In this document: one piece after another, positions 16,799-49,776 of the stretch
Position numbering within the stretch: position 1 is the first letter of the stretch
Layout of the letters: the number at the start of each line of letters is the position of its first letter
IMG/VR virus record: IMGVR_UViG_3300023176_005537
Location: 92,946-156,945 of that record
Reading direction: 5' to 3' (one strand)
From: a virus
Length of the DNA stretch: 64,000 nt
Position numbers and translations under genes: made by a program
The notes under the pieces: model-generated
The model's input: the letters and a program-made list of their open reading frames with translations, nothing else
What the model was told of the DNA's origin: nothing
Database searches by the model: none

Positions 16799-17317
16799 AT
16801 GATATTAGGTTTAGATGTTAGCACAAGCATAACTGGAATTTGTGTACTTGACAAAGAAGAAAATATAGTTTATAATTCTGCTGTGGATACTAGAAAATAC
16901 AAAAATATGTACGAAAAAGCAGAAAAAGTAAAAGAAAAGCTTAAAGAATTAAAAAAAGAATATGATATTAATAGCATTTATATTGAAAAGTCTTTGCAAT
17001 CTTTTAGATCAGGCTTCTCCTCTGCGAAAGTTCTTTCAACATTATCTGCTTTCAACGGGATTGTATCTTGGTTCTGTTATGAGATCTATGGAATTTCACC
17101 AGAATACATTTCGGCTTCCTCCGCAAGAAAAGATTGCGGTATCAAAGTTCCAAAAGGCCAAAAGGCAAAGCCCTTTGTTTTAGGAGTTCTGGTGAAAGAA
17201 GGTCTAATAAATCCAGAATACACGAAAAAAGGAAATCCAAAACCTATTTATTACGATATGTCAGATGCGATTGTCATTGCAAAATCAGGATTTTTAAAAA
17301 GGAGAGCAAATAAATGA
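16799..17317 (+). CDS. ruvC: RuvC-like Holliday junction resolvase
   Basis: MILGLDVSTSITG (first catalytic Asp), IYIEK (Glu), DMSDAIVIA (Asp pair); 172 aa. Confidence 0.85.
   Translation: MILGLDVSTSITGICVLDKEENIVYNSAVDTRKYKNMYEKAEKVKEKLKELKKEYDINSIYIEKSLQSFRSGFSSAKVLSTLSAFNGIVSWFCYEIYGISPEYISASSARKDCGIKVPKGQKAKPFVLGVLVKEGLINPEYTKKGNPKPIYYDMSDAIVIAKSGFLKRRANK
16848..16876 (+). promoter_or_regulatory. Consensus sigma70 promoter inside ruvC
   Basis: TTGACA (16848-53), 17 nt, TATAAT (16871-76). Confidence 0.45.
17244..17252 (+). promoter_or_regulatory. Putative late promoter (CTATTTATT) inside the ruvC 3' end
   Basis: AACCTATTTATTA, identical to the site at 46701-46713; ~60 nt upstream of ATG 17314. 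Confidence 0.5.
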
Positions 17318-17754
17318 AAATCACTAAAAAGCTTTTGATGAAGATCATCAAAGAAGAATTGGTTAGAGAAAGTATGAGCGATTGGCAGGCACACGACCGA
17401 AGAGAACGAGGTTTGCCCCCGCTAAAGGCCAATTACGACATTTCCAATAGTATCCCTCCTGATGGATATGTCCCGCCTCCCGAGCCCAAACTCGAAAACC
17501 CCCCTCCCCTTCCACCTGCGACAGAGCAAGATCTGGAAAAAGGAAGAATGGTCAGTTTTGACGGCCCCTATGAACAACAGATTCATTTCTTGAAAATGCA
17601 TAATCAATGGTTAAGAAGAGTGTATATGAAGCCTCGCGTAAAGGGCTACGAGAGCCTAAGCCGGCTTGAGCAACTTAAAGTCCTAGCCAACGGTCCCAAT
17701 CCCGGTGCGGTCCACGCAGACAAGGGAAGCTTGGAAGACTACCCTCTGGCATAA
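17314..17754 (+). CDS. Pro-rich hypothetical protein with KIIKEE leader (putative internal head protein)
   Basis: Begins MKITKKLLMKIIKEELVRE; AAGGAG RBS. Confidence 0.6.
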   Translation: MKITKKLLMKIIKEELVRESMSDWQAHDRRERGLPPLKANYDISNSIPPDGYVPPPEPKLENPPPLPPATEQDLEKGRMVSFDGPYEQQIHFLKMHNQWLRRVYMKPRVKGYESLSRLEQLKVLANGPNPGAVHADKGSLEDYPLA

Positions 17755-17767
17755 TAAAACAAATCAC

Positions 17768-17796
17768 TTGACAACACCCCCCATTCTTGATATAAT
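17768..17796 (+). promoter_or_regulatory. Perfect sigma70 promoter upstream of primase
   Basis: TTGACA (17768-73), 17 nt, TATAAT (17791-96) with extended TG; intergenic. Confidence 0.85.
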
Positions 17797-17825
17797 GTGT
17801 GTAACTTTTTCAAAGGAAACCACAC

Positions 17826-18749
17826 ATGAAAGAACTATCCATCCTTAAAAACACATTAGATTATGCTTACTCCAAAGGGAGCGAGCATCTTTTCTATTGT
17901 CCTTTCTGCAAGCATCACAAACCAAAAATGTCTGTTAACATCTCTAAAAACGTATTCAAGTGCTGGGTTTGTGACACAAGCGGTAAAAACGTCTATTACC
18001 TTCTAAAAAGATTTGGCTCATTTGATAATCAACAAGAATGGCTGAAGATCACAAATCAGATCGATGTTCGCGATTTTGAACTGATCATAACAGGTTCGAC
18101 AGTCCAAGAAAAGATCAAACAAAAGATCGATCTACCAAAAGAATACAAGCCTCTTTTTACAGGTTCAATTGACCTTTATTCTCAAAAGCCCCTGAATTAT
18201 CTTAAATCAAGGGGTTTTTCGCAAGAAAAGATCCTAGAATGGAAGGTTGGATATTGCCCATCAGGAGAGTACAAAGGAAGAGTAATCATTCCTTCTTTTG
18301 ATGATGAGGGAGATGTTAGTTATTTTATCTCTAGAACATACGAAAAAGATTGGAAAAAGTACAAAAACCCAAAAGCATCAAAAGATATTGTATTCAATGA
18401 CCTTTTGATTGATTGGGAAAAACCAATCATCTTGGTTGAAGGTGTTTTTGATGCGATCCATGAAAAGAATATGATCCCGATCTTGGGATCAACCCTCTCA
18501 GAAAGATCAGACCTTTTTCAAAAGATTGTTGAAAAAGCCAAGAAGGTTTTTATTGCTTTAGATCCAGATGCTTACAAAAAAGAGCTTGACATTATCTCAA
18601 GTTTGATCAAATATGGAGTAGACGTTTGGAAAATAGAAGTTCCAGAAGGGAAAGATTTGAACGACATTTCAAAATATGAATATCAAAGACTAAAAATGAC
18701 AGCAGTTGAAGTTAGATTTGATACTTTATTTTCAATGATTAACATATAG
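17826..18749 (+). CDS. DnaG-type DNA primase
   Basis: Zn finger CPFC...CWVC; GRVIIP; TOPRIM LVEGVFDA and ALDPDA; KDLND. Confidence 0.9.
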   Translation: MKELSILKNTLDYAYSKGSEHLFYCPFCKHHKPKMSVNISKNVFKCWVCDTSGKNVYYLLKRFGSFDNQQEWLKITNQIDVRDFELIITGSTVQEKIKQKIDLPKEYKPLFTGSIDLYSQKPLNYLKSRGFSQEKILEWKVGYCPSGEYKGRVIIPSFDDEGDVSYFISRTYEKDWKKYKNPKASKDIVFNDLLIDWEKPIILVEGVFDAIHEKNMIPILGSTLSERSDLFQKIVEKAKKVFIALDPDAYKKELDIISSLIKYGVDVWKIEVPEGKDLNDISKYEYQRLKMTAVEVRFDTLFSMINI

Positions 18750-18758
18750 GAGACACAA

Positions 18759-19154
18759 ATGATTGAATTTTTGAAGCAACAAGGCGTTTATGAACTGGTT
18801 TGGTTTTTAGGTGGTATTCTAGCTTACATGACTCTGCAATTTGTTGTAGGTGTAACACAAGCATTCAAGCTTATGAGGTCTGCAATGTATCTATCTCTTT
18901 CTTTTCTTTTGCAGGTTTATGTCGACACTAGACAAGAAATCCAAGAGCAAAAAGAAAGCTTCAAAAGAATGAATCCAGATTACACAGACTATGCTCTAGA
19001 AAAAGAGTTTGATAAAAGAGAGAAAGACGTTGATCTCTGGAGAGACAAGGCATTCAAAGAATTGCACGGATTATCTCCGGTAGTGTTTAATGCTGTAAGA
19101 AGTGAAATTAATGAAAAAATAGAAGAAGTTAAAAAGGGAGGTCTTAATGACTAA
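18759..19154 (+). CDS. Hypothetical membrane protein
   Basis: Hydrophobic N-terminal segment(s) LVWFLGGILAYMTLQFVVGV; AGGAG RBS. Confidence 0.55.
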   Translation: MIEFLKQQGVYELVWFLGGILAYMTLQFVVGVTQAFKLMRSAMYLSLSFLLQVYVDTRQEIQEQKESFKRMNPDYTDYALEKEFDKREKDVDLWRDKAFKELHGLSPVVFNAVRSEINEKIEEVKKGGLND

Positions 19155-22100
19155 GTTCGCTCACATCGCAGATACCCATATCAAAAACCTTAAATATCAC
19201 TACGAGTATGATCTAGTTTTCAAGCAACTTTACAAAGAATTGAAAAAAGAAAAGCCAGATTATATCATTCATTGTGGTGATATTGCCCACACCAAGACCC
19301 AAATCTCACCAGAATTTGTTGAAATCTGCTCTGATTTCTTCAAGAACTTGGCAGAAATTGCACCAACTTATATTATCTTGGGGAACCACGACGGAAACCT
19401 ACGCAATAAAAGCCGTCAGGATGCCATTTCTCCCATTGTAGATGCCCTAGGTATAGCTAACCTCCATTTGATCAAGAACGCGGCTAAAATAAGGCTTCCA
19501 GAGCCTTTTACGCTGAATGTGTTGAGCATCTTTGACGAAGACAATTGGGATCTAACACAAGATCTCGATCGCATCAACATTGCTCTTTACCATGGAGCAG
19601 TCAAAGGGTCGAAAACCGACGTTGGGTATGTGATCGAACACGGTGATGTTGAGATCAAAGATCTTAAAAAGTTTGATTATGGTTTTTTGGGAGACATTCA
19701 CAAGACAAATCAGAAGATCGATCGCAAAGGGAAGATCAGATATGCTGGTTCGACTGTACAACAGAACTTTGGCGAGACAGATGACAAGGGTTTTTTGATT
19801 TGGGAGATTGAAGATAAGGACAAGTTTTCTGTTCGGCATATTCTTTTGGAAAACCCAAAACCTTTTGTTACAATTAAGCTAACAAAGAAAGGCAAAATTC
19901 CAAAATCCGCCAAGCCAAAGCCCGGCTCTAGGATCAGGTTGGTGTCTGAAAGCAACATCACGCTCGATGTCCTTAAAAAAGCCATTGAAGACGCTAAAAT
20001 TGACTTTAAAGCAGAGTCTGTCACTCACTTGAGCAAAGCAGAATTGGCTAAAAAGAGCGTTGAACTGAAAGACAACGAGATTGAGAACCTTCGAGATGTA
20101 GAAGTCCAGAAAAAACTGATGAAAGAGTATCTAGAAGAATTTGAAGTTGAAGATGACATTATGGACAAGATTGTAGAACTTAATGCAAAGTACAATTCAC
20201 TGGTTGAAGGTAATGATGATCAGTTTCGCAATTTAAACTGGAAAATGAAATCCATGGAGTGGGAAAACCTTTTCAACTATGGGGGTGATAACTCGCTAGA
20301 CTTTGAAAAAATGAAAGGAATCATCGGGATCTTTGGGAAAAACTACTCCGGAAAATCCAGCATTATTGACTCTTTTCTCCTAGGAGCGTTTAACACCACT
20401 TCAAAGCCGGCAAAGAAGAATATTTCCTTTATTAATCAAAACAAGGAAGATGCTAGCATCGAGCTTAAATTTGACATTGGAGGAGAAGAGTACACTATTT
20501 CCAGAAGTATTGAAAAATACGTTAAAAAACTGAAAGGAAAGACAACAGACGAAGCAAAAGTGAATGTTGATTTCTCTTATTTTGACCCTGCTGCGAAGAA
20601 AGTTGTAGAATTGAACGGAAACACAAGAGCAGAGACAGATAGAAATATTCGCAAATATATTGGTTCAATTGAAGATTTTCTGATCACATCAATGTCGGCA
20701 CAGCATGGAGCATTGCAATTTGTGAACGAAGGCTCCACCAAGCGTAAGGAAATCTTGGCAAAATTCCTAGATTTGGTGTTTTTTGAAGAAAAATTCAAAG
20801 CAGCAAAAGAAGACTCCAGAGACCTTAAAGCTCTGATCAAAAAAGAAGAAGAAAGAAACTTTAAAGACGAGATTTTTGAACAAGAAAGCGCCTTAATCTA
20901 TAATCAATTAGATTTGGATGAGAAGAAAGAATGCTGTGATCTTCTGAAAGAAGAGAAGAAAGAAATGGAAAAAGAACTTTCTCTTTTAGAGCACAAAATC
21001 AAGTCAGTTCCAGCAAAAATCATCAACGTTGAAAAGTGTAGAAAAGAGTTGAAAAACTCAAATCAAATCTTGGAAACCTTGAAGTCAAGCCAAGCTGCGT
21101 TGGAAAGCCAGAAAGAAGAGAAAAGTGCTTATTTGAATAAAATCAAAGAGTTCCTTTCTACTTTTGATCCGGAAGAATATTACCAATCTTACGAGGTCGG
21201 TAAAGAAAAAGCCAAGCAAGTTAAATTGATCTTAAATGAGGTAAAACAAGAGGAAATCAAGAAGAAGATGGAAGAGAAAAAGATCTCTCTTCTTGATCAA
21301 GTTCCTTGTGGAGATCAGTTCAAAACTTGCAAATTCATTAAAGACGCTTTTGTGGCAAAAACAACAGTTTCAGAGTTGGAATTGGCACTAAAAGGACTTC
21401 AGAAGGAAAAAGAAGAAGCACAGAACTATATTGACAGCGACGAATACAAGAAGGCAGAAGAGTATGTTCAAAACTACGAAAAATTAGTTGAGAAAAAGAA
21501 CAAAGTTAACTCTGAATTGCTTAAGTTGAAGAACAAAGTGCTTCAGGGTCAAACTAAGGTTTCATCCACTGAAAGCATTATTTCTGAATTGAAGTCCGAC
21601 ATTAAAGAATACGAAGATAACAGAGAAGCAATTGAAAACTTGGAAGCCCTAGCAAAAGAAAAAAAGCAACTTAAAAAAGACCTTAAACAAAAAGAAAACG
21701 AATATAACACCTGTGAAGCAGAATATATTCACCTTCATACTGTTAAGGGACAAATTGAGCAAAAGCTGGAAACTGTCAAAAAAGAGGCAGAAGAATATGA
21801 AGAAAATAAAAAGAAGTTCGCAGCATATCATTTGTTCATGACTTGCTATCATAACTCTGGCATCTCATATGAGATTATCAAGAAAAGGCTCCCAAAGATC
21901 AACGAAGAGGTTCAAAAGATCCTGACAGGAATTGTTGATTTCGAAGTTTTCTTTGAAACAGAAGAAAAGAAATTGAATATTCTTATTCAACACCAAGGGC
22001 ACGATCCTAGACCGCTAGAATTAGGCTCCGGAGCCGAAAAGTCCATTGCCGCCATGGCTATAAGGCTGGCTCTATTGAATGTCTCTTCTCTTCCAAAGAG

Positions 22101-22296
22101 TGATATTTTCATTCTAGACGAGCCGGGAACAGCATTGGATGAAAGCAATCTGGAAGGCTTTACCAGAATACTTCAAATGATTAAAAACTACTTTAAAACT
22201 GTTTTGATCATAAGTCATATGGATTCTCTCAAGGACATTGTTGACTCGACAATTGATATTGACAGAGTTGACGGATTTGCGAGAGTAAATCAGTAA
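19147..22296 (+). CDS. Fused SbcD/Mre11 nuclease - SbcC/Rad50 ATPase (gp47-gp46-like)
   Basis: Phosphoesterase motifs HIADTH, CGD, GNHD, GDIH; Walker A GKNYSGKSS; long coiled coil; signature GSGAEK; Walker B FILDEP; H-loop ISH. Confidence 0.9.
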   Translation: MTKFAHIADTHIKNLKYHYEYDLVFKQLYKELKKEKPDYIIHCGDIAHTKTQISPEFVEICSDFFKNLAEIAPTYIILGNHDGNLRNKSRQDAISPIVDALGIANLHLIKNAAKIRLPEPFTLNVLSIFDEDNWDLTQDLDRINIALYHGAVKGSKTDVGYVIEHGDVEIKDLKKFDYGFLGDIHKTNQKIDRKGKIRYAGSTVQQNFGETDDKGFLIWEIEDKDKFSVRHILLENPKPFVTIKLTKKGKIPKSAKPKPGSRIRLVSESNITLDVLKKAIEDAKIDFKAESVTHLSKAELAKKSVELKDNEIENLRDVEVQKKLMKEYLEEFEVEDDIMDKIVELNAKYNSLVEGNDDQFRNLNWKMKSMEWENLFNYGGDNSLDFEKMKGIIGIFGKNYSGKSSIIDSFLLGAFNTTSKPAKKNISFINQNKEDASIELKFDIGGEEYTISRSIEKYVKKLKGKTTDEAKVNVDFSYFDPAAKKVVELNGNTRAETDRNIRKYIGSIEDFLITSMSAQHGALQFVNEGSTKRKEILAKFLDLVFFEEKFKAAKEDSRDLKALIKKEEERNFKDEIFEQESALIYNQLDLDEKKECCDLLKEEKKEMEKELSLLEHKIKSVPAKIINVEKCRKELKNSNQILETLKSSQAALESQKEEKSAYLNKIKEFLSTFDPEEYYQSYEVGKEKAKQVKLILNEVKQEEIKKKMEEKKISLLDQVPCGDQFKTCKFIKDAFVAKTTVSELELALKGLQKEKEEAQNYIDSDEYKKAEEYVQNYEKLVEKKNKVNSELLKLKNKVLQGQTKVSSTESIISELKSDIKEYEDNREAIENLEALAKEKKQLKKDLKQKENEYNTCEAEYIHLHTVKGQIEQKLETVKKEAEEYEENKKKFAAYHLFMTCYHNSGISYEIIKKRLPKINEEVQKILTGIVDFEVFFETEEKKLNILIQHQGHDPRPLELGSGAEKSIAAMAIRLALLNVSSLPKSDIFILDEPGTALDESNLEGFTRILQMIKNYFKTVLIISHMDSLKDIVDSTIDIDRVDGFARVNQ

Positions 22297-22303
22297 AAAG
22301 CAC

Positions 22304-22320
22304 CTATTTATATATAAATA
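22304..22320 (+). promoter_or_regulatory. Putative late promoter within a 16-bp perfect palindrome (TATTTATATATAAATA)
   Basis: CTATTTAT motif at the replication-to-late cluster boundary; 22305-22320 is self-complementary. Confidence 0.6.
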
Positions 22321-22338
22321 TGTAAAAGGTGTCCAATA

Positions 22339-22758
22339 ATGATCAAGATTAAGTTCCTCAAAAAACTCCCCGTTTCAGGAGGCAAATGCCCTCCTGCCAC
22401 ACAAGATCTGAAACTAAACACCAAAAATAGAAACGCTTCAATTAAGGCAGAACACATCCAATACGGCCCTTTAAACCTATCTGACGAGGCTTATTGGGAA
22501 AGAGCCGCAGAACATTGGAACACCACTCCTGCCGTGGCTAAAAAGTCCAAATGCGGCAATTGTGTTGCTTTTGATATTTCACCTAGAATGGATGATTGTA
22601 TGCCCGGCCCTGTGTCCGATAAGGATGGCCGTTTGGGTTACTGCTGGATGCACCACTTCAAATGCCACAGTGCGAGAACATGCTACACATGGGCAGCAGG
22701 TGGGCCAATCAAAGAAGACAAAGTTTCCCTTGAATGGCAAGAAAAGGGTGAAAAATAA
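22339..22758 (+). CDS. Cys-rich hypothetical protein, possible metal/Fe-S binding
   Basis: CGNC...GYCxxxxFKCxSxRTCxTW. Confidence 0.55.
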   Translation: MIKIKFLKKLPVSGGKCPPATQDLKLNTKNRNASIKAEHIQYGPLNLSDEAYWERAAEHWNTTPAVAKKSKCGNCVAFDISPRMDDCMPGPVSDKDGRLGYCWMHHFKCHSARTCYTWAAGGPIKEDKVSLEWQEKGEK

Positions 22759-24029
22759 TGCCCTATAAGATCAGGAAAACAAAGTGCAAAAAATCAGATG
22801 GTTCTTCCGGAACTCACGTTGTTTATAAAAAAAGCGGTAAGCGTGTCGGATGCACAGATGAGCCAGAAGATTACAAAAAAGCTCTTTATGCAGCAGAAGT
22901 TAATGAAGTTTTGATCTTGGAAGATACGCTGTATAAAAACGTAGAAGATGACGTGTTTCTACACTTTACCTTGCGAGATAGAGCTTATAAGATCAGAGAA
23001 ATGGGAGAATTACTTCGACAGCCCGAAGGTATAGAGAAGTTTGGAACAGATACAATTGACGCAGTTTCTTTGATTTGGGGAGATTTTGTCCCCAAAGTGC
23101 AGACCAATCACCTAGGCGGCGAAGACATTGTAGCAATCATTTTCAAGACTGATGTGCCTCCAAAATATGGCTATGTTGAAGAGGTGAAATGGGACGTTGA
23201 AAGACTTCCTATTTACGATGTTAGGATTGTGCCTTTCGAAGAAGCAGTTCAAATGTTGAGAAATGCGCCTGAATATGTCGATGAAATGGATTATGTTCTT
23301 TACAAGGAAAATAAACAAATGAATATTGAAGACCTAAGTGCGATCATTCGAGAGGAAGTTAAGCTTGCACTGGAAGAAGCCAAAAAGAAGAAAAAGAAGA
23401 AGAAAAAATCTAAAAAGAAGAAGGGCAAAGACGATCGCTGCACTCGTATTGCAAAAAGAAAGTATGATGTGTGGCCGTCAGCCTACGCTAGCGGCGCAGT
23501 TGTTCAGTGCCGCAGAGGAAAGATTTGGAAAGGTCTAACAGAAGAGAAGGAAATCACCCCAGAAGACAAAGAGACAATTTCTGATATTGTAGCCAAATTG
23601 AGAGCAGCATCGGAGTCTCACGCTCAAATGGCAAAAGATTTGGAAGATGGTGCAGCAAAGCTTGAAAAAGGTTCAGAAGCCCATTCTAGCCAAGCAGACA
23701 AATTAGAAAAGATGATCCAAGAAAGAAAAAAGAAGAAAAAGAAGTCTAAAAAAAAAGTAAAAACTGACTTCTCCAAAGAAAAGGACAAAGGCCTTCACGG
23801 TTGGTTTGAAAGGCAAGGTGGTAAAGGAAAAAGTAAAGGCTGGGTTGATTGTAATACTTGCCGAACAGACAAGAAAACAGGAAAGAAAACTTGTAAATCT
23901 TGTGGTCGTCAAAAAGGCGAGAAAAGAGCAAAATACCCCTCTTGCCGTCCAACCCCTGCTGCTTGTGGGACTGCTGGCAAAGGAAAGTCTTGGGGTAAAA
24001 AGTCTGCTAAAAAAGGAAAAAAGAAATGA
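22758..24029 (+). CDS. Multi-module, Lys/Cys-rich putative internal head polyprotein
   Basis: Distinct modules (MPYKIRK..; LHFT..EE; AKRKYDVWPSAYASG; GLHGWF..WVDC..CGR..YPSCRP) separated by VNE/ILE, LEE, LTE and IQE sites; poly-Lys runs. Confidence 0.6.
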   Translation: MPYKIRKTKCKKSDGSSGTHVVYKKSGKRVGCTDEPEDYKKALYAAEVNEVLILEDTLYKNVEDDVFLHFTLRDRAYKIREMGELLRQPEGIEKFGTDTIDAVSLIWGDFVPKVQTNHLGGEDIVAIIFKTDVPPKYGYVEEVKWDVERLPIYDVRIVPFEEAVQMLRNAPEYVDEMDYVLYKENKQMNIEDLSAIIREEVKLALEEAKKKKKKKKKSKKKKGKDDRCTRIAKRKYDVWPSAYASGAVVQCRRGKIWKGLTEEKEITPEDKETISDIVAKLRAASESHAQMAKDLEDGAAKLEKGSEAHSSQADKLEKMIQERKKKKKKSKKKVKTDFSKEKDKGLHGWFERQGGKGKSKGWVDCNTCRTDKKTGKKTCKSCGRQKGEKRAKYPSCRPTPAACGTAGKGKSWGKKSAKKGKKK

Positions 24030-24871
24030 AAATAAAGATTTTGAAAGAGATGAAAGGGTGCGGTGGTGTTTATGAAAGATGCCCACATTCCGGGTGCTCC
24101 CATTGCAGGAGTGAACACGGTCGAGATTTTGATAAGCACGATCACGAAGGTTCAATGGCAAGAACCAATCTTTGGAAAACCAAAAAGTATTGTGAAAAGT
24201 TATTAGATATGCTTAATGACAAAGATGATCTTCCAGAGTGGGTTGACGCAAAGATCACAAAAGCAACAGACTATCTTTCCTCTGTTAAAAGATATATGGC
24301 TGGTGAGATTGCCAGAGATCAGGGAATGCTTGAAGAAAGGCTTTCCGAAGGAATGAAATATCATATGGATAACAATATTACGATTGATAAAAATATTTAT
24401 CGCATCCACTCTGACAACTTCTTTTCTCTTTTCAAAGAAGCAAGAAATCTTTGGAAAAGAGGTTTGGTTAATTTAACAGAAGCTGAAAGATATTACATCT
24501 CTGAAACTGAAATTGGAGAGTTTGGCATCTTTGAGGGCAAAAGAGTTCCATTGGACTTTCCAATGGTTGAGGAGTCTCTTTTGGAAGCAAAGTATAAAGG
24601 AAAGGATGTTAAACTTAACAAGCCACAAAGAGGTGGTTCCAAGAAGTTTTATGTTTACGTTAGAGATCCAAAAACTAAAAACATTCGCAAAGTTTCTTTT
24701 GGAGACAAAGGAATGTCTGTAAAGGTGGCAGATCCAGAGAGAAGAAAGTCTTTTGCAGCACGACATAAATGCAAGGAAAAAAAAGACAAAACAAAAGCAG
24801 GATACTGGGCTTGTCGTATTGGGCGCTACCCTCATCTAACTGGTTCAAAGAAAAGGTTTACTTGGTGGTAA
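24026..24871 (+). CDS. Multi-module putative internal head protein
   Basis: EGSMA...LPEWVDAKITKATDYL module; LSEG..YH module; KPQRGGSKKFYVYV..FGD..RRKSFAARHKC..AGYWAC module, all of a type seen in T4-like phage late regions. Confidence 0.6.
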   Translation: MKIKILKEMKGCGGVYERCPHSGCSHCRSEHGRDFDKHDHEGSMARTNLWKTKKYCEKLLDMLNDKDDLPEWVDAKITKATDYLSSVKRYMAGEIARDQGMLEERLSEGMKYHMDNNITIDKNIYRIHSDNFFSLFKEARNLWKRGLVNLTEAERYYISETEIGEFGIFEGKRVPLDFPMVEESLLEAKYKGKDVKLNKPQRGGSKKFYVYVRDPKTKNIRKVSFGDKGMSVKVADPERRKSFAARHKCKEKKDKTKAGYWACRIGRYPHLTGSKKRFTWW

Positions 24872-24872
24872 T

Positions 24873-25151
24873 ATGGAATTTCCTTTCAAAGAAAAGAAGT
24901 TAGAAAACAATATCGTGATCAGAGAGTTCAAAGAAAATGTTGATTCCGAAGAGCTTATCTGGCATAGAGATAGAGAAAACAGAGAAGTTACAATCTTGCA
25001 ATCTTCTGGATGGCAACTTCAAATGGACAATGAAATTCCAAAAACCCTTGAAGAGGGAAAAACTTATTATATTCCTGCTTTTGTTTACCACAGAGTGATC
25101 AAAGGCAGCGGCAATCTTATTGTTAAAATAAAAAAGGAAGAGATTAAATGA
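24873..25151 (+). CDS. Small cupin-fold protein
   Basis: WHRDxE motif 1 and GxTYYIPAFVYHRV motif 2. Confidence 0.7.
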   Translation: MEFPFKEKKLENNIVIREFKENVDSEELIWHRDRENREVTILQSSGWQLQMDNEIPKTLEEGKTYYIPAFVYHRVIKGSGNLIVKIKKEEIK

Positions 25152-26965
25152 AGATGAAATTAATCATGGAAAGTTTTCGAAAAACAATGAAAGAATTCAA
25201 AGAGAGAGAAGGCAAAACAATGTCTTATGATTCTTCTTTGGGTGGCTTTGTTGTTTCAAAAGAAGACTTGTCAAAAATCAACCAAGCAATCGAAAAGATC
25301 TACAAAGCATTTGAAGAAAGAACCGGAGGAACTGCTGAAAATATCCCTAGGATTGAAGCAGAAGATCTAGAGCCTGTTGCGGGAGCTTTGAACGAATCGG
25401 CGGAACAAGGTGGGGAGCCCACCGAAGAGGAAAAGGATTATATTGCTCTACGACATTTTGGATACGATTCATGGAACGAATTGCCCGAAGAAGACAAAGA
25501 TCTTGTGATGAGAAGGTTGGAGCTTTTCACTTCGGGCGGCGAAATGAAGCAAACCATTGGAGCCGTTAGTGGCTTGAAAAAAGGTCTGGGACGTATGAGC
25601 CCAGAGGACTTTGAAAAAGGGGGATACGTCCTTCCCGTTTCCGCAGAAGTTCTGGAAGATTTTCAGGCTATGGTCAATGAATTGAAAGAAGGTGGTGAAG
25701 TCGATAGCCTTTTTGAAAAAGCTAGGGACTGGTATCATAAAATTAGAGATCTCCTCGATGAAGAAACTGGAAATGATCAAGACGCTACTTTGCTAGGTCT
25801 TCTTATTGCAACGTACAGCCCCAGAGCAAAGTTTGCTCTGAACTTGGCTGAAGCTGCTTTTATGTTCAAAGCAGTTGAAATGGATGCAAAGGACAACAAA
25901 GAGCTTTTGAGAGAATATATTAATATCTTTCCCGGTGGTAAAAAGAAAAAGCAGGGAGAATTTCGAGGGTTTACAAAGGCGCACAAAGTTCCAAACTTCA
26001 CCCTGAACCTGATCGCCCCAGATTTGTCTGGTGGGCGAGATAAAGAAGGGAAAATTAGCTATGATGAGCTTTATATGTGGAACTCCACAATTGACACTTG
26101 GATGATTGACGCTTTTTATCCAAATGTCAGAGGTGTTACAACGGCAAAAGAATGGGAAAAGATCAAAGGCAAGATGATGGGTAACGTTGTTACTTATCGG
26201 TATATGGCAGGGTTGGTCGCACAGGAAGCGAAAAAACTAGGCCTCTTACCTCATGAGCTTCAAGCTATTGTGTGGGTTGCTTCTCAAATCAGAAAGACTG
26301 GAGAGAAAGGTCTTGGTGTCACTACTGAGTTTGCAATCAATCAAATTAAACAATCCATTGTCAACCTAGAAAAGATTAAAGAACAATTCAACGAAGAGGA
26401 AAGGATTAATAAGAAGTTGGTCGGACCATACCTTAAAGAGTTGGATATGGACAAAGAATATACAGAACAGTTTGGAGATCAAAGCTGGCTTAAAGTTATT
26501 TTGGATAAGATTGAAACAGATGGTTTTGATGAGGCTGCTGATTATATCTTAGGAATTAAAAAAGGAGACAAAACGGTTGTTCCCGGTGTGCGCTCTATCA
26601 CAGCCTCTGGTAAGAAAGGGAAAGAACCAGATCGCTTTAATCCTGTTCGCCCAGAGTTTAAACCAAAGAAAGAGAAGAAAGAAAAGGAAGAAAAGAAGAA
26701 GAAGCCAAAGGACACAAGATATCAAGACGCAGAAAAATATGGAGAACTTAAAACATTTTATGTTATGAATGAAGTCATTCAGATGCGAACCGGAAAGTTC
26801 AATAACCTTCACGACTCAATTCTTTTGTATTTGAGTGATGATTTCTCTAAAGAAAAGGCTGTTGATTATATTCTAGGCAGGTTCGACTCCGAAGCAAAAG
26901 CCTCCAAAGATTATTTCATCAAAGAAAGCAAAAGAAGATTTGTTGTAAGGATTTTGAAATCATGA
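25148..26965 (+). CDS. Protein with a helical DNA-glycosylase-like domain and MKxKLIME leader
   Basis: WY...IATYSP...NLxxA; TIDTWM; Y...AKKLGLLPHELQAIVW. Confidence 0.55.
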   Translation: MKMKLIMESFRKTMKEFKEREGKTMSYDSSLGGFVVSKEDLSKINQAIEKIYKAFEERTGGTAENIPRIEAEDLEPVAGALNESAEQGGEPTEEEKDYIALRHFGYDSWNELPEEDKDLVMRRLELFTSGGEMKQTIGAVSGLKKGLGRMSPEDFEKGGYVLPVSAEVLEDFQAMVNELKEGGEVDSLFEKARDWYHKIRDLLDEETGNDQDATLLGLLIATYSPRAKFALNLAEAAFMFKAVEMDAKDNKELLREYINIFPGGKKKKQGEFRGFTKAHKVPNFTLNLIAPDLSGGRDKEGKISYDELYMWNSTIDTWMIDAFYPNVRGVTTAKEWEKIKGKMMGNVVTYRYMAGLVAQEAKKLGLLPHELQAIVWVASQIRKTGEKGLGVTTEFAINQIKQSIVNLEKIKEQFNEEERINKKLVGPYLKELDMDKEYTEQFGDQSWLKVILDKIETDGFDEAADYILGIKKGDKTVVPGVRSITASGKKGKEPDRFNPVRPEFKPKKEKKEKEEKKKKPKDTRYQDAEKYGELKTFYVMNEVIQMRTGKFNNLHDSILLYLSDDFSKEKAVDYILGRFDSEAKASKDYFIKESKRRFVVRILKS

Positions 26966-27678
26966 AGATGGACGAAAAATATCCTCTCCTTCCACACGAC
27001 GAAGAGATTTCAGATTGGCAATGGTGTATCAAAAAAGCAATCATTGATATTCACGCCAAAGCAATGCCTTATAAAAGAGGCACTTGGGGTGGTTCAACCG
27101 AAGACATTTATTATGACAAAAGAAGGATCTTGAGAAAAGGCGAAGGAACCTACTGTGTTGGATGCACTTCTGAAATCTTCTTCCGCGCTTGGAAAGAATT
27201 CACAGGGGATTACCTTGAAACACCAGAAGGCAACTTTACAGGCAAAGAAGCTTGGGAAGTTGCAAGAGCCTTTTTCTTTGCTTACAAAGACGAAGAGATT
27301 GACGGAATGCGAACAGACGAATTTGGAGCAATGGGTTGGTTTAAATGGTTAGCAAACAGACCAGAACGCTTTGATTGGATTGAAACCTTCACAACACACA
27401 ATCCTTATGAGATCCAATTTGGAGATTGGGTTTCAATGCAGTTTGCAGAAGATTATTCATCCGGCCACGCTACAGTGGGGTTGGGATTGGACAAGTACAA
27501 AGGCAATGATGTTGTCAACGTTTATTCTTCAACTACTTATTATGATAAAACTTGGATGAAAGAAAAGGGCGTTGAAAATCCCTACTCAACAGGGAACGGC
27601 TTTGATTATTACCGTTTAAACGTAACAAAGAGTGGATTTAAAAGAAAGTTCTTTGTTTCAAGATTAGTTCAAAAATAG
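26962..27678 (+). CDS. Putative NlpC/P60-like (papain-fold) cysteine hydrolase; candidate endolysin
   Basis: GTYCVG (Cys) and GDWVSMQF...SGHAT (His); directly upstream of a holin-like gene. Confidence 0.5.
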   Translation: MKMDEKYPLLPHDEEISDWQWCIKKAIIDIHAKAMPYKRGTWGGSTEDIYYDKRRILRKGEGTYCVGCTSEIFFRAWKEFTGDYLETPEGNFTGKEAWEVARAFFFAYKDEEIDGMRTDEFGAMGWFKWLANRPERFDWIETFTTHNPYEIQFGDWVSMQFAEDYSSGHATVGLGLDKYKGNDVVNVYSSTTYYDKTWMKEKGVENPYSTGNGFDYYRLNVTKSGFKRKFFVSRLVQK

Positions 27679-27687
27679 GAGTTTAAA

Positions 27688-27999
27688 ATGGCTAGAAGAA
27701 CAGCTTTTGTTGATAAATATTTATCATCGTTTATTTCAAAAAAGTTATTGGTTTGGATTGTCGCAACAGTCGTGTTTTTGACAACTGGCAATCTTAAATC
27801 AGGAGATTGGCTTGTGATCTCTGCTATTTACATTGGTGGGCAATCTGTTATTGACGCAGTGAAAGCAATGAAAGGCTCGACCAATGTTACAACGAAAGTT
27901 GAAACAGCAGTGAAGACAATCTTGTCCGACAAAGACAAGAAAGATGAGAAAGGGAAAGTTCCCCTTTCTGATACAACAGGCGATACGGTGACAAAATGA
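27688..27999 (+). CDS. Holin-like small membrane protein
   Basis: Two short TM segments (LLVWIVATVVFL; WLVISAIYIGGQSVIDAV) and a charged C-tail. Confidence 0.55.
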   Translation: MARRTAFVDKYLSSFISKKLLVWIVATVVFLTTGNLKSGDWLVISAIYIGGQSVIDAVKAMKGSTNVTTKVETAVKTILSDKDKKDEKGKVPLSDTTGDTVTK

Positions 28000-28409
28000 G
28001 TGAGATTTGGGCAGAGGTTAAAAGAAAGTGGACAGAGTCCAAATATTTTATAGCAGTTGTTTTTGTTTTCTTGACAGTTGCTATTTTTCTTTTGACGACC
28101 AGCGATGGTCAAAAAAGATTGAGACAAATCATAAGGTCTTTGCAAAAAAGAAGAGAAGATGAATTGTACGAAATCCAAGAAAAACAAAATCAAAAAGAAA
28201 AAGAAAAGAAAGATTTAAAAAAGAAACATGAGAAGATTTTGGAAGAGATTGGAAAAGAATACAAGATTGGAAAAGAAAACGCCAAGAAAGAATACGACAA
28301 GAAGGTTAAAAAGATCTTGAAACAAACAAAGAAAGATCCTTCTCAGTTGTCCAAAAGATTGGCAGATGAATTTGGTCTTGACTACAAGGAAGATAATAAT
28401 GAAAATTAA
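27996..28409 (+). CDS. N-anchored coiled-coil protein, i-spanin-like
   Basis: Single TM (FIAVVFVFLTVAIFLL) followed by a charged coiled coil; ATGA coupling to the holin-like gene. Confidence 0.45.
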   Translation: MSEIWAEVKRKWTESKYFIAVVFVFLTVAIFLLTTSDGQKRLRQIIRSLQKRREDELYEIQEKQNQKEKEKKDLKKKHEKILEEIGKEYKIGKENAKKEYDKKVKKILKQTKKDPSQLSKRLADEFGLDYKEDNNEN

Positions 28410-28935
28410 AAAAAAACAACTCTTAAAAATCATCAAAGAAGAGCTTTTAAAAGAAAACATACAAGAACTTTTTGCAACAATAAGACAGCTTATCAATGCC
28501 GGCCAATATGACAGGGCATATGCTCAAATCATGGTGCAAATTGATGAAGACGATCCAAAGCACAAAATGGCAATTGATTATCTTGTTAGGCACAGTGGAG
28601 ATGATTCGTATGAAGATAAGCTAAATAGTTGGCCTGATAGCGATTTTAGAAAATTAATTGCATATGGCTTTCTGCAATACGATCATGATTTTGATGACTT
28701 TCTGTCGAACTATGTCCAAGGTATCTTCGAAAGTCCCGAAGATTATCTTAAATATAGGTGGGAAGAGTACACTTGGGACATGATTGAGGAGCTTCCACTT
28801 CCCTCCGACATAGAACGTTATATCGATATCGAAATCAATTGGGCTATGTGGGCAAGAGACAGTGAGCTTAATGGCGAGTTTGCATCTTGGGAGCTTGATG
28901 GCGTTCCCGGAGTTTTGATTATATCCCCAGCATAA
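28399..28935 (+). CDS. ArdA-like antirestriction protein with KIIKEE leader
   Basis: Start reassigned to ATG 28399 (AAGGAAG RBS). Acidic C-terminal region YVQGIFESPEDY...LPSDIERYIDIEINWAMWARD..LNGEF resembles ArdA C-terminal domains. Confidence 0.65.
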   Translation: MKIKKKQLLKIIKEELLKENIQELFATIRQLINAGQYDRAYAQIMVQIDEDDPKHKMAIDYLVRHSGDDSYEDKLNSWPDSDFRKLIAYGFLQYDHDFDDFLSNYVQGIFESPEDYLKYRWEEYTWDMIEELPLPSDIERYIDIEINWAMWARDSELNGEFASWELDGVPGVLIISPA

Positions 28936-28948
28936 GACAGGAGTAGAA

Positions 28949-29389
28949 ATGATTACCTTTAAACGCGTTTTAAGCACCATTCTAGCCACTTTCATCACAA
29001 TTTCGCCCTGCTATGCCAATAAGTCCACAAGGCTTCAAAAAGGGGCAAAAGCGCCCTTTTCTGGAACGCTCTTGGATGATGAAGCGGTAGCAAAGATTTT
29101 GGCAAAACAAGATTACTTGAAAAAAAGCTTGAAGTTGGATTGTTCTTACCAAAGACAAAAAGAAAAAGCAAAGCTTCAATTGAAGATTGATCAATGCAAA
29201 GTAGATTTCAAAATTGAGAAAGAATTGAGAAAAAACTTAAGAAAGATTGATCAAGAAGAGATTACAAGATTAAGAAAGATTGCAAAGCCGCAAAACAATT
29301 GGACACCTCTTTGGATCACAATTGGCTTTGTTGCAGGAGCAGGAACAACAATTTTAATTCTTTATGGAATACAAGGAATTCAAAAGTGA
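28949..29389 (+). CDS. Exported protein with signal peptide, coiled coil and C-terminal TM; possible spanin component
   Basis: N-terminal hydrophobic signal, APFSGTLL, C-terminal TM LWITIGFVAGAGTTILILY; AGGAG RBS. Confidence 0.45.
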   Translation: MITFKRVLSTILATFITISPCYANKSTRLQKGAKAPFSGTLLDDEAVAKILAKQDYLKKSLKLDCSYQRQKEKAKLQLKIDQCKVDFKIEKELRKNLRKIDQEEITRLRKIAKPQNNWTPLWITIGFVAGAGTTILILYGIQGIQK

Positions 29390-29841
29390 AGATCAAAAAA
29401 GAAACCATTTTCAAGATCATCAAAGAAGAGATTGAAAGAGAACTTTCAAAAGAAGAAAAGCACAAGATTGTTTCTTTTGATTTTGATGATACCTTGACCT
29501 TTGCTCCTTTTGATCCGGAAGAAGAACATTCTGTTTACAAAGGGCCTCATGAGGAAATGATGAAAAAGATTAGAGGCTATATCGAAGATCCAGAAGTTAC
29601 CGTTTATATTGTAACAAGCAGAAAGCAGGGCGGCATGGGACAAGTTAAAGGTTTTGTCGAAAAATATAAATTAAAAGTTGACGGCATTTATTGCACAGAC
29701 GGAGATTGGAAAGCCCCCACTTTGAAAGAATTGGGTGTAACTTTGCATCATGACGATGACAGTCAAGAAAATGAAAGAGCAGAAGCAGTAGGAATCCAGA
29801 CAGTTCCAAGTGATCCATATGGCGATTACGGCACATTTTAA
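29386..29841 (+). CDS. HAD-superfamily phosphatase with KIIKEE leader
   Basis: GTG start at 29386 (GTGA overlap, AAGGA RBS); motifs FDFDDTL, IVTSR, K, HHDDD. Confidence 0.8.
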   Translation: MKIKKETIFKIIKEEIERELSKEEKHKIVSFDFDDTLTFAPFDPEEEHSVYKGPHEEMMKKIRGYIEDPEVTVYIVTSRKQGGMGQVKGFVEKYKLKVDGIYCTDGDWKAPTLKELGVTLHHDDDSQENERAEAVGIQTVPSDPYGDYGTF

Positions 29842-29868
29842 AGCAACAGGCCAATGGAGAAGTTATAG

Positions 29869-30663
29869 ATGAAAAGTCATAATAGCAATATAAAAATTAA
29901 AAAGAATCTTCTCTTCAAAATTCTGAAAGAAGAGATCAAAAAAGAATTTTTGAAAGAAGGTATTTTAAGGATTCAAGATTATATTTCAAATGAAAATTTG
30001 AAATTGATTGAAGATACGTTTCGCAACCTTTTAAATACATATTTAACTTCCGATAGAGAAGAAAGCCTTTATTGGAATGTTGAGAAATTTGAATTTATAA
30101 ATGTTGCCGGAGAGGAGGAGGTTGTTGACTTGATGCTTTCCGTTGGTCGGCCACCAAGAGGAATGGAAGGGGCTGTTGCATATCTAGATGCTAGGCCCAG
30201 TATTGGCTATTACCACTTAGCAATGTGTGTGTTAAACAAGGAAGATTATGATATAGAGGACGGTATTGATACCATGATTAATCATGAATTAATTCACTTG
30301 ATAGATTCAAAATATTTTAAACGAAAAGACAGGAAAAAAGCTTACTTAGCTAGGCGAGAAGAAATTTTAGCTTTTTCTAGTCAGATATATAAACAGGTTG
30401 TTGACTTTTTAAATTCGGAAGATGAGCAGGACAAAGATTATTTGAATATTTTGCTTAATCTTTATAAAGATGGTGCGATAAAACAATTACAATTATTTAA
30501 AGCTATATTAAAGACTAGTCAACAGCTTGGAGCGATAGGCAAAGATCCCAGATTTATAAAATCTATAATGCATCAGCACACAATGAAAGATAAGCAACCT
30601 TATTTAAAACATCTTTACAAAAAATTGTGGCCATTGATTCAAAAGAAACTTCAGGAGGTTTAA
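29869..30663 (+). CDS. Zincin-like metallopeptidase with KILKEE leader
   Basis: INHELIHLID (HExxH) followed by Y...EEILAF. Confidence 0.65.
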   Translation: MKSHNSNIKIKKNLLFKILKEEIKKEFLKEGILRIQDYISNENLKLIEDTFRNLLNTYLTSDREESLYWNVEKFEFINVAGEEEVVDLMLSVGRPPRGMEGAVAYLDARPSIGYYHLAMCVLNKEDYDIEDGIDTMINHELIHLIDSKYFKRKDRKKAYLARREEILAFSSQIYKQVVDFLNSEDEQDKDYLNILLNLYKDGAIKQLQLFKAILKTSQQLGAIGKDPRFIKSIMHQHTMKDKQPYLKHLYKKLWPLIQKKLQEV

Positions 30664-31004
30664 TGAAAGATCAGAATTATGTTGTGAAAATGGAGAAAGC
30701 AATCTCCGAAAAGTGGGGTGCAGAGGCAATTCAAAACCCAAAAGCAGGATGGGATCAAGAAAAAGAAAAAGAATATCTTGAACAGTTGAAAGAAAAAGAA
30801 AGAAAAAAGAGAGATTTAGAGAAAAAAGCAAAACAAAATCTTTCAAAAGTGGCAAGAGCGTGTCCTATTTGTGAACAAGACAAGATTAGTTCAAGGCACG
30901 ATGTTTATTTCACAAAGTTTTCTTGTTGTTTTGATTGCTATGTGCAGTGGATTGAAGGTAGAGAGCAAAGATGGAAGGAAGGTTGGAGACCAGACAAAAA
31001 ATAG
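30663..31004 (+). CDS. Hypothetical Zn-binding protein
   Basis: Start reassigned to ATG 30663 (AGGAGG RBS, TAATG); CPIC...CCFDC. Confidence 0.6.
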   Translation: MKDQNYVVKMEKAISEKWGAEAIQNPKAGWDQEKEKEYLEQLKEKERKKRDLEKKAKQNLSKVARACPICEQDKISSRHDVYFTKFSCCFDCYVQWIEGREQRWKEGWRPDKK

Positions 31005-36888: not shown

Positions 36889-37488
36889 ATGTCAAAGAAG
36901 TTGTTAACAGAGTTTTATGAATTATGCCCCAATGGGGTTTGCGAAGATATATTAACGGAATCGGAAAAAAGAATGGTTAGGGAGAACGGTGCTCTTTTTC
37001 TTTCTGGAGTGATCCAAAGAGCGGAGCATTTGAATGGTAATGGTAGAGTTTATCCCCGACCTATCTTACAAAGAGAAATGAGCACTTATCGTAAGCTGAT
37101 CGAAGAAGGAAGAGCAGTTGGAGAACTGGATCATCCAGACTCTTCTGTTGTGAACCTTCGTAATGTTTCCCACAAAGTTACTGACTGCTGGTGGGATGGT
37201 GATAATGTTTATGGAAAATTGCAAGTATTGAATACACCTTCTGGTCAAACTCTTCGCGCTTTGGTTGAAGGAGGTGTTAAGATTGGGATCTCATCGCGTG
37301 GATTGGGCTCTGTTGTTGAGTCTGCCGGTAGAACATTAGTAGAAGATGACTTCCAGCTTATCTGCTTTGACATTGTACAAGAACCTTCTACTTCTGGTGC
37401 TTTCCTTTTCCAAGAAGAAAAGCAAAGGCTTCATGAAAACAAAAATGTAAAAATCAATTCACTTTTAGATGACATTTTAAAGGGATAA
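36889..37488 (+). CDS. Prohead maturation protease (T4 gp21-like)
   Basis: NGNGRVYP, GELDHP, VSH, TPSG, GISSRGLGS, FDIVQEPST. Confidence 0.95.
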   Translation: MSKKLLTEFYELCPNGVCEDILTESEKRMVRENGALFLSGVIQRAEHLNGNGRVYPRPILQREMSTYRKLIEEGRAVGELDHPDSSVVNLRNVSHKVTDCWWDGDNVYGKLQVLNTPSGQTLRALVEGGVKIGISSRGLGSVVESAGRTLVEDDFQLICFDIVQEPSTSGAFLFQEEKQRLHENKNVKINSLLDDILKG

Positions 37489-37894: not shown

Positions 37895-38143
37895 ATGGCT
37901 ACAAACGTAAAAATCTTTAAGAGAAAAAATGAAACAGAAGAAAACCTTGTTAGGCGATTCATCAAGAAATGCAAGAAAGAAAGGATCGTTGAAGAAGCAA
38001 GGGAAAGAAAAGAATATCTTAAACCTTCTGTAAGAAAGCGAAGAAAGCGCGAAAGAGCGCAAAGACAAAGAGAAAGAGACGCTCGGAAAGCTGCAAAGCA
38101 GTTGGAAAAGTTCAAAACAAGAAAAAGGAATAAATCAAAATGA
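37895..38143 (+). CDS. rpsU: Phage-encoded ribosomal protein bS21
   Basis: VKIFKRKNETEENLVRRFIKKCKKERIVEEARERKEYLKPSVRKRRKRERA matches the bS21 pattern (E..L.RFK......E...R..Y.KPS..R). Confidence 0.85.
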   Translation: MATNVKIFKRKNETEENLVRRFIKKCKKERIVEEARERKEYLKPSVRKRRKRERAQRQRERDARKAAKQLEKFKTRKRNKSK

Positions 38144-41038: not shown

Positions 41039-42088
41039 ATGTCTTCTTTGTTAGAGCAAGCAATCGTAGATGCAAAGGCATTAAAAGAAGTTGCAATTCA
41101 AAACGCTGAAAGAGCAATCATTGAAAAGTATTCTGATGAAGTTCGTTCTACTTTGGATCAACTTCTAGAACAAGAAGAACCTCTTGGCGAAGAAGTTGGC
41201 AATGGTGATCTGGAACCTGCATTGGAAGAGGAAATTCCGTTCGCACACAGAACTTCTGATGTCGAGCCTCAAATGGTCTCTATCGATCTTCAGCAATTGG
41301 AAGAAGAGATCAACAAAAGGTTTGAAGGTGTTCTGGCAGAGAGAAAGTCTTTTCTGATTGCAGAGCCGGAAGTTCTGGAAGAAGCAAGCTGCGGCGGCCC
41401 TCACAAAAAAGATGAAGATGAGCCGGTTTATATGGAAGACGAAGAAGAAAAGCTTGAAGAAGCTAAATGCCCTTCGGATTGTAAATGTGAGAAGTGTAAA
41501 GACAAGCTTGAAGAAGAAATTGAATTGGATGATGAACTTTTCTTGGAAGAAGGCTTCTATTTGGATTACAAAACCCAACCCACAGGACATGTTGGTGCTT
41601 TCACCGACTCTGAAATGGAATTGGCAATGGATCTTGAAAGAATCAAAGAAAAATATGAAGACAAGATCGAAAAACAACAAGGCATTATGCAAGAAGCAGT
41701 TGAGATCATTGAAGATCTTGAAGCCAAAAACAAAAAATATGAGAATTACTTTAAGAAACTGAAAGAAAGTTTTGAAAAAGTTAAATTAGACAACACAAAA
41801 TTGATGTATACCAACAAGGCCCTGATGAACGACTCCCTTAATGAGCGGCAAAAACAAAAGATTGCCGAAAGTTTGTCAAGCGCCAAGAATGAAGAACAGG
41901 CCAAGATAATTTTTGAGACATTATCACAAAGTTCAATGGGAAGCAACAGAGTTGCTCCAAAATCATTGAGCGAAGCAGTCGAAAAACGAAGTCTGTTGAC
42001 AGTGGCTCCTCGAAGAAAAGAAAACAAGGAGACCATTGAAGAAGCAATCTCTAGCCGTTGGAAGAGATTGGCAGGAATTAAAAACTAA
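41039..42088 (+). CDS. Prohead core/scaffold protein (gp22-like)
   Basis: Acidic coiled coil with many LxE sites, ends RWKRLAGIKN, directly upstream of the MCP. Confidence 0.8.
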   Translation: MSSLLEQAIVDAKALKEVAIQNAERAIIEKYSDEVRSTLDQLLEQEEPLGEEVGNGDLEPALEEEIPFAHRTSDVEPQMVSIDLQQLEEEINKRFEGVLAERKSFLIAEPEVLEEASCGGPHKKDEDEPVYMEDEEEKLEEAKCPSDCKCEKCKDKLEEEIELDDELFLEEGFYLDYKTQPTGHVGAFTDSEMELAMDLERIKEKYEDKIEKQQGIMQEAVEIIEDLEAKNKKYENYFKKLKESFEKVKLDNTKLMYTNKALMNDSLNERQKQKIAESLSSAKNEEQAKIIFETLSQSSMGSNRVAPKSLSEAVEKRSLLTVAPRRKENKETIEEAISSRWKRLAGIKN

Positions 42089-45308: not shown

Positions 45309-45319
45309 GGAAGTAACAA

Positions 45320-46682: not shown

Positions 46683-46703
46683 TTCTTTTTGAGCCTGATC
46701 AAC

Positions 46704-46712
46704 CTATTTATT
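46704..46712 (+). promoter_or_regulatory. Putative late promoter (CTATTTATT)
   Basis: Intergenic, ~39 nt before the sheath ATG. Confidence 0.7.
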
Positions 46713-46750
46713 ATAAGAAAAATGATATTTGATGTATAGGAGATTATTGA

Positions 46751-49732: not shown

Positions 49733-49776
49733 TATAAAAGAACTAGTTAATAATAAAAGTAGGAGAATATGAATAA

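Follow-up and report, generated by a model that had tools for sequence, protein, structure and literature searches.

The final 64 kb of the IMG/VR virus record IMGVR_UViG_3300023176_005537 (G000:C1:92946-156945 of 156,945 bp; CheckV completeness, 86%), referred to here as the window, encodes proteins that are unrelated in their bodies and yet begin with the same short leader. The consensus of this leader, MKI(T/K/S)KxxLxxI(I/L)xEE, covers roughly 16 residues and is found on at least 11 unrelated proteins of the genome. We propose, with a probability of about 0.6, that the leader serves a clade of uncultured marine T4-like myoviruses as a portable N-terminal propeptide for capsid targeting, one that would work like the capsid-targeting sequence (CTS) of the T4 internal proteins IPII and IPIII. 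The source phage itself is, as judged from gene content, a distant T4-like myovirus, because its large terminase shares 46% identity with the terminases of Flavobacterium phage immuto and Microcystis phage Mel-JY01 and ~34% with those of T4-like cyanophages, and because of the genes in its head module. Every long open reading frame (ORF) of the window lies on the + strand.

A 20-residue profile hidden Markov model (HMM) of the leader, run over the whole genome, identified 11 N-terminal copies (E 3e-9 to 6e-6) and one C-terminal copy (E 1e-3), with the next match at E 0.06. Four N-terminal copies are in the window, and seven are outside it, at genome positions 45294-50839, in consecutive or nearly consecutive genes. 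None of the replication, neck, or tail ORFs of this genome scores with the model, in agreement with the original prediction, which had been made from the window sequence and had described the leader as missing from these proteins. The four leaders that it reported, at 17314, 28399, 29386, and 29890, are all present on the + strand, and a six-frame translation of the window contains the pattern [KR][IVL][IVL][KR]EE exactly four times, always at these N termini. Two start codons needed revision: 29386 starts with GTG, and the codon at 29890 is ATA, which is not a start. The true start of the latter gene is an ATG with a GGAGAAG ribosome-binding site 21 nt upstream, at 29869, and the leader therefore sits seven residues inside the protein. 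This 7-residue extension is common to three homologues, and in homologue P0010 the leader starts at Met1.

The leader extends well beyond this record. A strict back-translated DNA pattern (M K I T K x x L x x I I K E E), whose chance expectation is far below one per collection, is present in more than 118 IMG/VR stretches, often several times per contig. In 596 Gb of prokaryote genomes, the same pattern is found in 12 stretches, all on contigs of metagenome-assembled genomes (MAGs), with zero in isolate genomes. Two of these contigs, NHDW01000006.1 (305 kb; L123/L128/L131; "Methylococcaceae" MAG) and PBIO01000025.1 (101 kb; L124/L127; "Halobacteriovorax" MAG), have five to six leader copies each and are probably mis-binned phage genomes.

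An iterated HMM covering 118 related loci (1.18 Mb) plus this genome gave 358 matches. As the iterated profile drifted to the majority form MKITKSQLKQIIKEE and lost some copies of this genome at E < 1e-3, the first profile was used for the genome itself. Of the 358, 350 have their start residue (M or V, from ATG or GTG) precisely at leader position 1, and a single copy is truly C-terminal. With the leader removed, 337 bodies form 252 BLASTP clusters, 206 of them singletons. The matches in the genome and its relatives are thus N-terminal and carried by diverse, variable bodies, as had been foreseen. Leader-bearing proteins have a median length of 108 amino acids (aa), a size similar to that of the T4 internal proteins, and residues M1 to [L/I]16 are highly conserved, with conservation falling off beyond them. 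With the leader profile, leader-like N termini were also seen in the uncultured 484-kb record LR756508 and in phage immuto, where the candidates are immuto136C_190 (MKKSQLRQIIKEALDAS), the ORF at 102247 (MKKSELVKLIKEELN), and the ORF at 81490. A tblastn search of the phage collection with the 22-residue leader gave no match, such a query being too short and subject to the low-complexity filter. A literature search on the motif and on "capsid targeting sequence" found no paper on the leader.

Comparison of homologues shows that the leader is a swappable module. One HAD body, that of the 29386 family, occurs with four N termini: the class 1 leader MKIKKETIFKIIKEE, the class 2 leader MKLLFENWRKYLKE (about a dozen members), a long extension beginning MLKIKFKRSLNE (P0021/22), and no leader-like N terminus at all (P0036). 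Members of the 29869 family carry the leader at Met1, carry it behind the 7-residue extension, or have a different N terminus (MLRVKFGKKNKKVITE, MLKVILRAKPRLLNE), and all eight share the invariant junction [L/I]-x-E-G, with or without the leader. At the level of gene order, relatives share a conserved framework from an SbcCD-like gene to the terminase gene (TerL), into which leader genes are inserted at differing places and in differing numbers.

The second leader class, MK(L/V)IMENW(R/D)xF, matches as a regular expression at 25148 and in 17 N-terminal cases on otherwise different proteins in related loci. The 25148 protein had been listed as a looser copy of the main leader; its N terminus does fit a recurrent leader, but one of this second class. 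Of the other looser copies, that at 23319 is unsupported, being internal to ORF 22758-24029 and without an HMM score. The N terminus at 24026 has no score of its own either, yet it is probably a truncated leader, because homologues in two relatives, L197 (9137) and L198 (9287), carry the canonical leader, starting MKITISELKQIIQEE and MKISISELKEIIQQE. The products of 22758-24029 and 24026-24871 are Lys rich and contain extended poly-Lys stretches (KKKKKKKKKSKKKKGK) together with a phrog_727 module, WPSAYASG, and a module of DUF5754/phrog_7595; they may bind DNA inside the head. A third leader type at 22339 is a weak candidate: the regular expression M(L/I)(K/R)(V/I)KF matched only the window's own 22339 in 1.5 million residues of related loci.

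The leader also contains what may be a cleavage site. All 11 copies in this genome have [I/L]-x-E, the motif of T4 gp21, at positions 12 to 14, with Glu14 invariant and position 12 always I or L. A second [I/L]-x-E, present in 39% of the proteins with its end at position 21 or 22 and in 14% with its end at 18 or 19, is enriched 10- to 25-fold over a background of 1.1% per position deeper in the body. In T4, the prohead protease gp21 strips the internal proteins of their propeptides. The window does encode a protease of this family, as had been stated at the outset (Table 1), and such a protease is encoded in 25 of 31 leader-bearing contigs of ≥31 kb and in all 6 contigs that are ≥90% complete. 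The protease of the leader-bearing clade probably keeps the T4 specificity, because the predicted cut site of the capsid protein aligns with that of T4 gp23, which is cut after Glu65. The N-terminal region of the capsid protein aligns with the gp23 propeptide (LLNKWKPLLEGEGL versus LLSKWERTGLLEGL), and the T4 cut, FLTE/AE (the slash marks the bond), stands opposite LLKE/AS in the window, IVSE/AN in immuto, and LISE/AN in Mel-JY01. The leader-bearing genome also has, as a T4-type system does, a scaffold-like gene (at 41039), which is conserved in relatives.

The head module runs in the order portal, two conserved unknowns, small membrane protein, protease, 37490, S21-like gene, scaffold-like gene, capsid, adaptor-like gene, and sheath. 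The 37490 protein, next to the protease, was another of the looser copies. Alone it scores poorly (E 21); its family consensus, MKKSELKKxIKPLVKECIxEVL from seven homologues and the window copy, is clearly leader-like, reading MKKSELKK(V/I)IK(PLV)KE. The homologue in L146, MKKSELKNIIKE, lacks the PLV insert. The family is present in 8 of 8 related head modules (the L151 copy is a shortened ORF call). As to the S21-like gene, its syntenic counterpart in Mel-JY01 is annotated as RpsU, and homologues occupy the same place in six related contigs.

A promoter-like motif links the leader genes with structural genes. The octamer CTATTTAT has 18 copies on the coding strand of the whole genome and 0 on the reverse strand, and 14 of the 18 lie 15 to 80 nt upstream of a called start, a zone that makes up 7% of the genome (binomial P, 2e-13). 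It heads the scaffold-capsid pair (with the copy at 40998), the adaptor-like gene, the sheath gene, the 728-aa gene at 51538, the gene before the terminase, and two large genes at 10100 and 13486. Five leader genes are headed by it, among them 17314, with a copy at 17244, 70 nt upstream; it also heads 22339, the first of a series of genes that overlap or abut without interruption as far as 31004 and include 28399, 29386, and 29869. No recognizable replication gene of this genome follows the octamer. In closer relatives, the seven-base core of the octamer, CTATTTA, likewise precedes structural genes and shows the same bias of strand, and no octamer is more enriched upstream of leader genes elsewhere than the overlapping ACTATTTA. 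In its form, CTATTTAT looks like a single-element promoter of the T4 late type. The copy ahead of 17314 falls within the end of the preceding gene. A second enriched string, about GTATGAATGGATTAGCAAC, precedes ~16 leader genes (upstream 100 nt, loci L003-L120) and may belong to an intergenic element or to a preceding gene whose end is conserved.

What the leaders are attached to varies. The body of 17314 is, as first described, a Pro-rich unknown without a Pfam or PHROG match; its neighbors are RuvC-like 16799, primase-like 17826, and the 1,049-aa Mre11/Rad50-like fusion 19147, labels that come only from reading the sequences. The 28399 body is very acidic (net charge, -22), and its best Pfam match is ArdA (PF07275), at E 0.049 and 14.7 bits against a cutoff of 27, which is below threshold. 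An Atlas model has a TM (template modeling) score of 0.54 to an ArdA cluster; our own AlphaFold2 (AF2) model, built from 7 sequences, has a pLDDT (predicted local distance difference test) score of 44 and is unusable. The weak ArdA likeness is thus a sub-threshold lead. Close homologues of 28399 have a 7-residue deletion within the leader (MKIK-------IKKKLLKE) and keep the junction LLKE. Two leader proteins upstream of the window are pentapeptide-repeat proteins (PF00805; E 8e-56 and 8e-28), and most of the others have no match. One pentapeptide-repeat protein of 617 aa (genome 45294-47147; L002:2295-4148) has the leader at its N terminus and a second copy, FTKSKLFKMIKEEILKEMNDW, at its very C terminus. 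Both pentapeptide-repeat and ArdA proteins are DNA mimics.

The other two window proteins resemble enzymes. At motif level, 29386 reads as a small HAD-type phosphatase, with FDFDDTL, T77/S78-R79, K109, and HHDDD (DDD123-125) invariant in 18 homologues; its profile matches are sub-threshold (PF06189, E 8e-4; phrog_1238, E 2e-7). In the 29869 body, H139-E140-x-x-H143 and the downstream E165 are invariant in 8 sequences. Its AF2 model (pLDDT, 79) shows the leader as a separate low-confidence helix. With this model, Foldseek gave nothing at E ≤ 0.001, the best VIA-align hit (Z 5.4) covers only the helical C-terminal part, and the best peptidase-like hit, PprI, is within noise at Z 4.5. A profile search of the family against 1.84 billion representatives found only 6 proteins, one of which, repetitive and 2,391 aa long, was judged spurious, and phmmer searches of three bodies against PDB sequences gave nothing significant. 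The cargo labels given originally thus hold to different degrees: the HAD motifs are present, ArdA is only a sub-threshold match, and the HExxH motif of the supposed peptidase is invariant on a fold without a clear peptidase match. The description of the cargo as "anti-defense or host-takeover enzymes" is plausible only for the proteins that resemble DNA mimics.

Table 1. Leader genes, head genes, and promoter-like motifs of the window (positions count from the first nucleotide of the window)
Feature	Position	Strand	Remarks
Leader gene 1, 146 aa	17314..17754	+	Leader MKITKKLLMKIIKEELVRE at 17314-17370; HMM E 1e-8; ATG start, AAGGAG ribosome-binding site
Leader gene 2, 178 aa	28399..28935	+	Leader MKIKKKQLLKIIKEELLKE; HMM E 1e-6; ATG start, homologues also start MKIK
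Leader gene 3, 151 aa	29386..29841	+	Leader (M)KIKKETIFKIIKEEIERE; HMM E 2e-6; GTG start; apparent small HAD-type phosphatase body
Leader gene 4, 264 aa	29869..30663	+	Leader IKIKKNLLFKILKEEIKKEFLKE at 29890-29958 behind 7-residue extension; HMM-scored
Probable truncated-leader gene, MKIKILKE	24026..24871	+	C-terminal part matches DUF5754/phrog_7595
605-aa protein	25148..26965	+	N terminus MKMKLIMESFRKTMKE resembles second leader class
139-aa protein starting MIKIKFLKK	22339..22758	+	Loose likeness to MLKIKFKRSLNE and MLRVKFGKKNKKVITE extensions on homologues of leader genes 3 and 4
CTATTTAT promoter-like motif	22304..22311	+	Heads tightly packed run 22339-31004
Further CTATTTAT copies	10051, 13449, 17244, 31024, 40998, 43994, 46704, 51488	+	Octamer match
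Portal	33187-35154	+	phrog_213
Prohead protease, T4 gp21 family (Peptidase_S77)	36889..37488	+	PF03420 E 2.9e-30, above cutoff; phrog_207 E 4e-54
Head-module protein, 131 aa	37490..37885	+	Directly 3' of protease; leader-like N terminus MKINLEKLKNIIRPIVKEVIEE
S21-like gene, 82-aa basic product	37895-38143		Inside head module; resembles ribosomal protein S21
Acidic scaffold-like protein	41039..42088	+	5' of capsid gene; position and composition; 21 [L/I]-x-E sites
Major capsid protein, gp23-like	42113..43912	+	phrog_138 E 6e-71; propeptide end LLKE/AS, residue 59
Tail sheath	46751	+	Follows adaptor-like gene; headed by CTATTTAT

Taken together, these features suggest that the leader is most likely an enlarged version of the T4 tag by which a protein is loaded into the head and the tag is then clipped off. 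Leader-tagged proteins would be made together with the structural proteins, and the leader helix would dock them on the scaffolding core of the prohead, where the core-module protein 37490 would use the same kind of N terminus. The gp21-family protease at 36889 would cut after [I/L]-x-E, at position 14 and/or at the second site 4 to 8 residues on, and the mature cargo would remain in the head with the DNA and enter the next host. A DNA mimic that acts against restriction, as ArdA does, and is made late would be useful mainly if carried into the next cell, as are T4 IPI* and the P1 Dar proteins. Every sequence-level expectation of the capsid-targeting proposal that could be checked has held, namely, the N-terminal position, diverse bodies, cleavage motif, protease, promoter-like motif, 37490, and interchangeability. 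A broader version, in which a small code of interchangeable tags (MKITK..L..IIKEE and MKLIMENW..FL.E), each ending in a cut site, loads and injects at least 10 enzymes and DNA mimics, is a more tentative proposal to which we give somewhat less than even odds.

The closest parallel is in T4, where internal proteins are diverse anti-defense proteins that share only a conserved CTS and are loaded onto the scaffolding core (PMC3012670). The T4 ipII and ipIII products have the identical start MKTYQEFIAE, and gp21 also removes propeptides from IPI and Alt. Like the CTS, the leader is a short N-terminal peptide on unrelated, hypervariable small proteins and ends in [I/L]-x-E; a gp21-family protease is present, the propeptide site of the capsid protein is homologous, and the cargo plausibly includes anti-restriction proteins. 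T4 Alt, trimmed at both ends (ITE-6 and LTE-619; PMC5694885), offers a precedent for the 617-aa protein with a leader copy at each end. The leader differs from the CTS in having ~16 conserved residues rather than 10, in tagging at least 11 genes compared with the 2 that share MKTYQEFIAE in T4, and in its at least two interchangeable classes, enzyme cargo, and spread over hundreds of uncultured marine contigs. We infer that the two systems are analogous or only very remotely related.

Other phages and capsids show parts of this arrangement. In phiKZ, 201phi2-1, and SPN3US, many head-internal proteins are processed after Glu by a gp21-like protease, and the SPN3US paralogues gp53 and gp54 share an identical 15-residue N terminus that contains the cut motif (PMC5694885). 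In these giant phages, however, a shared N terminus is limited to paralogues and the cut is at (S/A/G)-x-E, whereas here one leader is found on unrelated folds and the motif is [I/L]-x-E, as in T4. Loading of proteins into an HK97-fold shell is likewise a feature of phage P1 and of encapsulins. P1 DarA and DarB are packaged in the head and delivered with the DNA to block restriction, the same logic as would apply to a packaged ArdA-like or pentapeptide-repeat DNA mimic; they are loaded through an ordered protein hierarchy, with no common leader, and the cargo-loading tags of encapsulins are usually C-terminal and not cleaved.

The main rival, which we consider unlikely, is that the leader is a general docking or oligomerization helix that acts independently of the capsid, is never removed, and either binds a hub (a chaperone, a membrane, or a replication or transcription complex) or pairs with other copies of itself. 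A short Lys/Glu-rich helix with a hydrophobic stripe would suit such a role, as would ordinary-looking enzyme cargo such as the HAD protein, and the helices at the two ends of the 617-aa protein could pair, although propeptides at both ends, as in Alt, do not preclude capsid loading (PMC5694885). A docking helix leaves unexplained why Glu14 is invariant with I or L at -2, why a second [I/L]-x-E is enriched, and why the [L/I]-x-E-G junction is invariant even in leaderless family members; nor does it account for the motif shared with structural genes or for the leader-like 37490 beside the protease.

Lower still in our ranking, and doubtful, is the possibility that the leader is a removable propeptide of accessory proteins of the prohead core, which help build the core or are degraded, like T4 gp67, gp68, and gp22, and are not delivered to the next host as active cargo. 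The conserved 37490, in the position of a core gene and with the same kind of N terminus, fits this, and many tagged proteins are tiny and without a recognizable fold. Core builders should, however, be conserved, whereas the cassettes are hypervariable (252 clusters among 337 bodies), with different sets in close relatives, and several bodies are folded enzymes or repeats of the DNA-mimic type.

It is highly improbable that the conservation serves the nucleic acid, as a translation-initiation enhancer or a short homology block for cassette recombination: leader codons are A rich at the start (AAA at +2 in 80%), and the leaders of the adjacent 29386 and 29869 are near identical across homologues, hinting at exchange, but every synonymous codon is used at conserved positions (I3 is ATC in 56%, ATT in 29%, and ATA in 15%; E15 is GAG in 55% and GAA in 45%), amino acid conservation reaches residue 16, two or three leader classes occur on the same body, and recombination at leaders makes better sense as an effect than as the function. 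As all synonymous codons are used, selection acts on the peptide and not on the DNA or RNA.

Several points weigh against the capsid-targeting proposal itself. Docking, cleavage, retention in the head, and injection are all steps that we infer, and no published virion proteome was found for immuto, for Mel-JY01, or for any leader-bearing phage. Between the leader and the T4 CTS there is no significant sequence similarity, only a loose MK.T...I.E pattern; the leader profile has no match in T4, Syn9, HTVC008M, or S-SRM01 and a single weak one, not N-terminal, in Mel-JY01. The [I/L]-x-E motif is easily found in any Lys/Glu-rich helix. Shared ancestry confounds the co-occurrence with the protease, which is expected within one T4-like lineage and so does not count as independent proof; gp21 is, to our knowledge, present in all T4-like phages. 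The label "late" for CTATTTAT is drawn only from the genes that the octamer precedes, and a single-sequence search with T4 gp55 for a late sigma factor gave no match in the 86%-complete record, which does not imply absence; the internal-protein genes of T4 itself are also located among early genes. Lastly, one would not readily expect a HAD phosphatase or a possible metallopeptidase among injected cargo.

If the leader is a capsid-loading tag, hundreds of small "hypothetical" genes of abundant ocean phages become candidates for proteins that arrive with the DNA, at the first moment of the conflict between phage and defense, and such proteins would be recognizable by a 16-residue signature alone. 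Were the tag code also true, the proteins that uncultured phages inject could be read directly from their sequences, and capsids could be loaded with proteins of choice by means of the tag. A cultured phage with similar N termini exists in Flavobacterium phage immuto. The T4 internal-protein system would then be a small laboratory example of a larger, multi-class cargo system.

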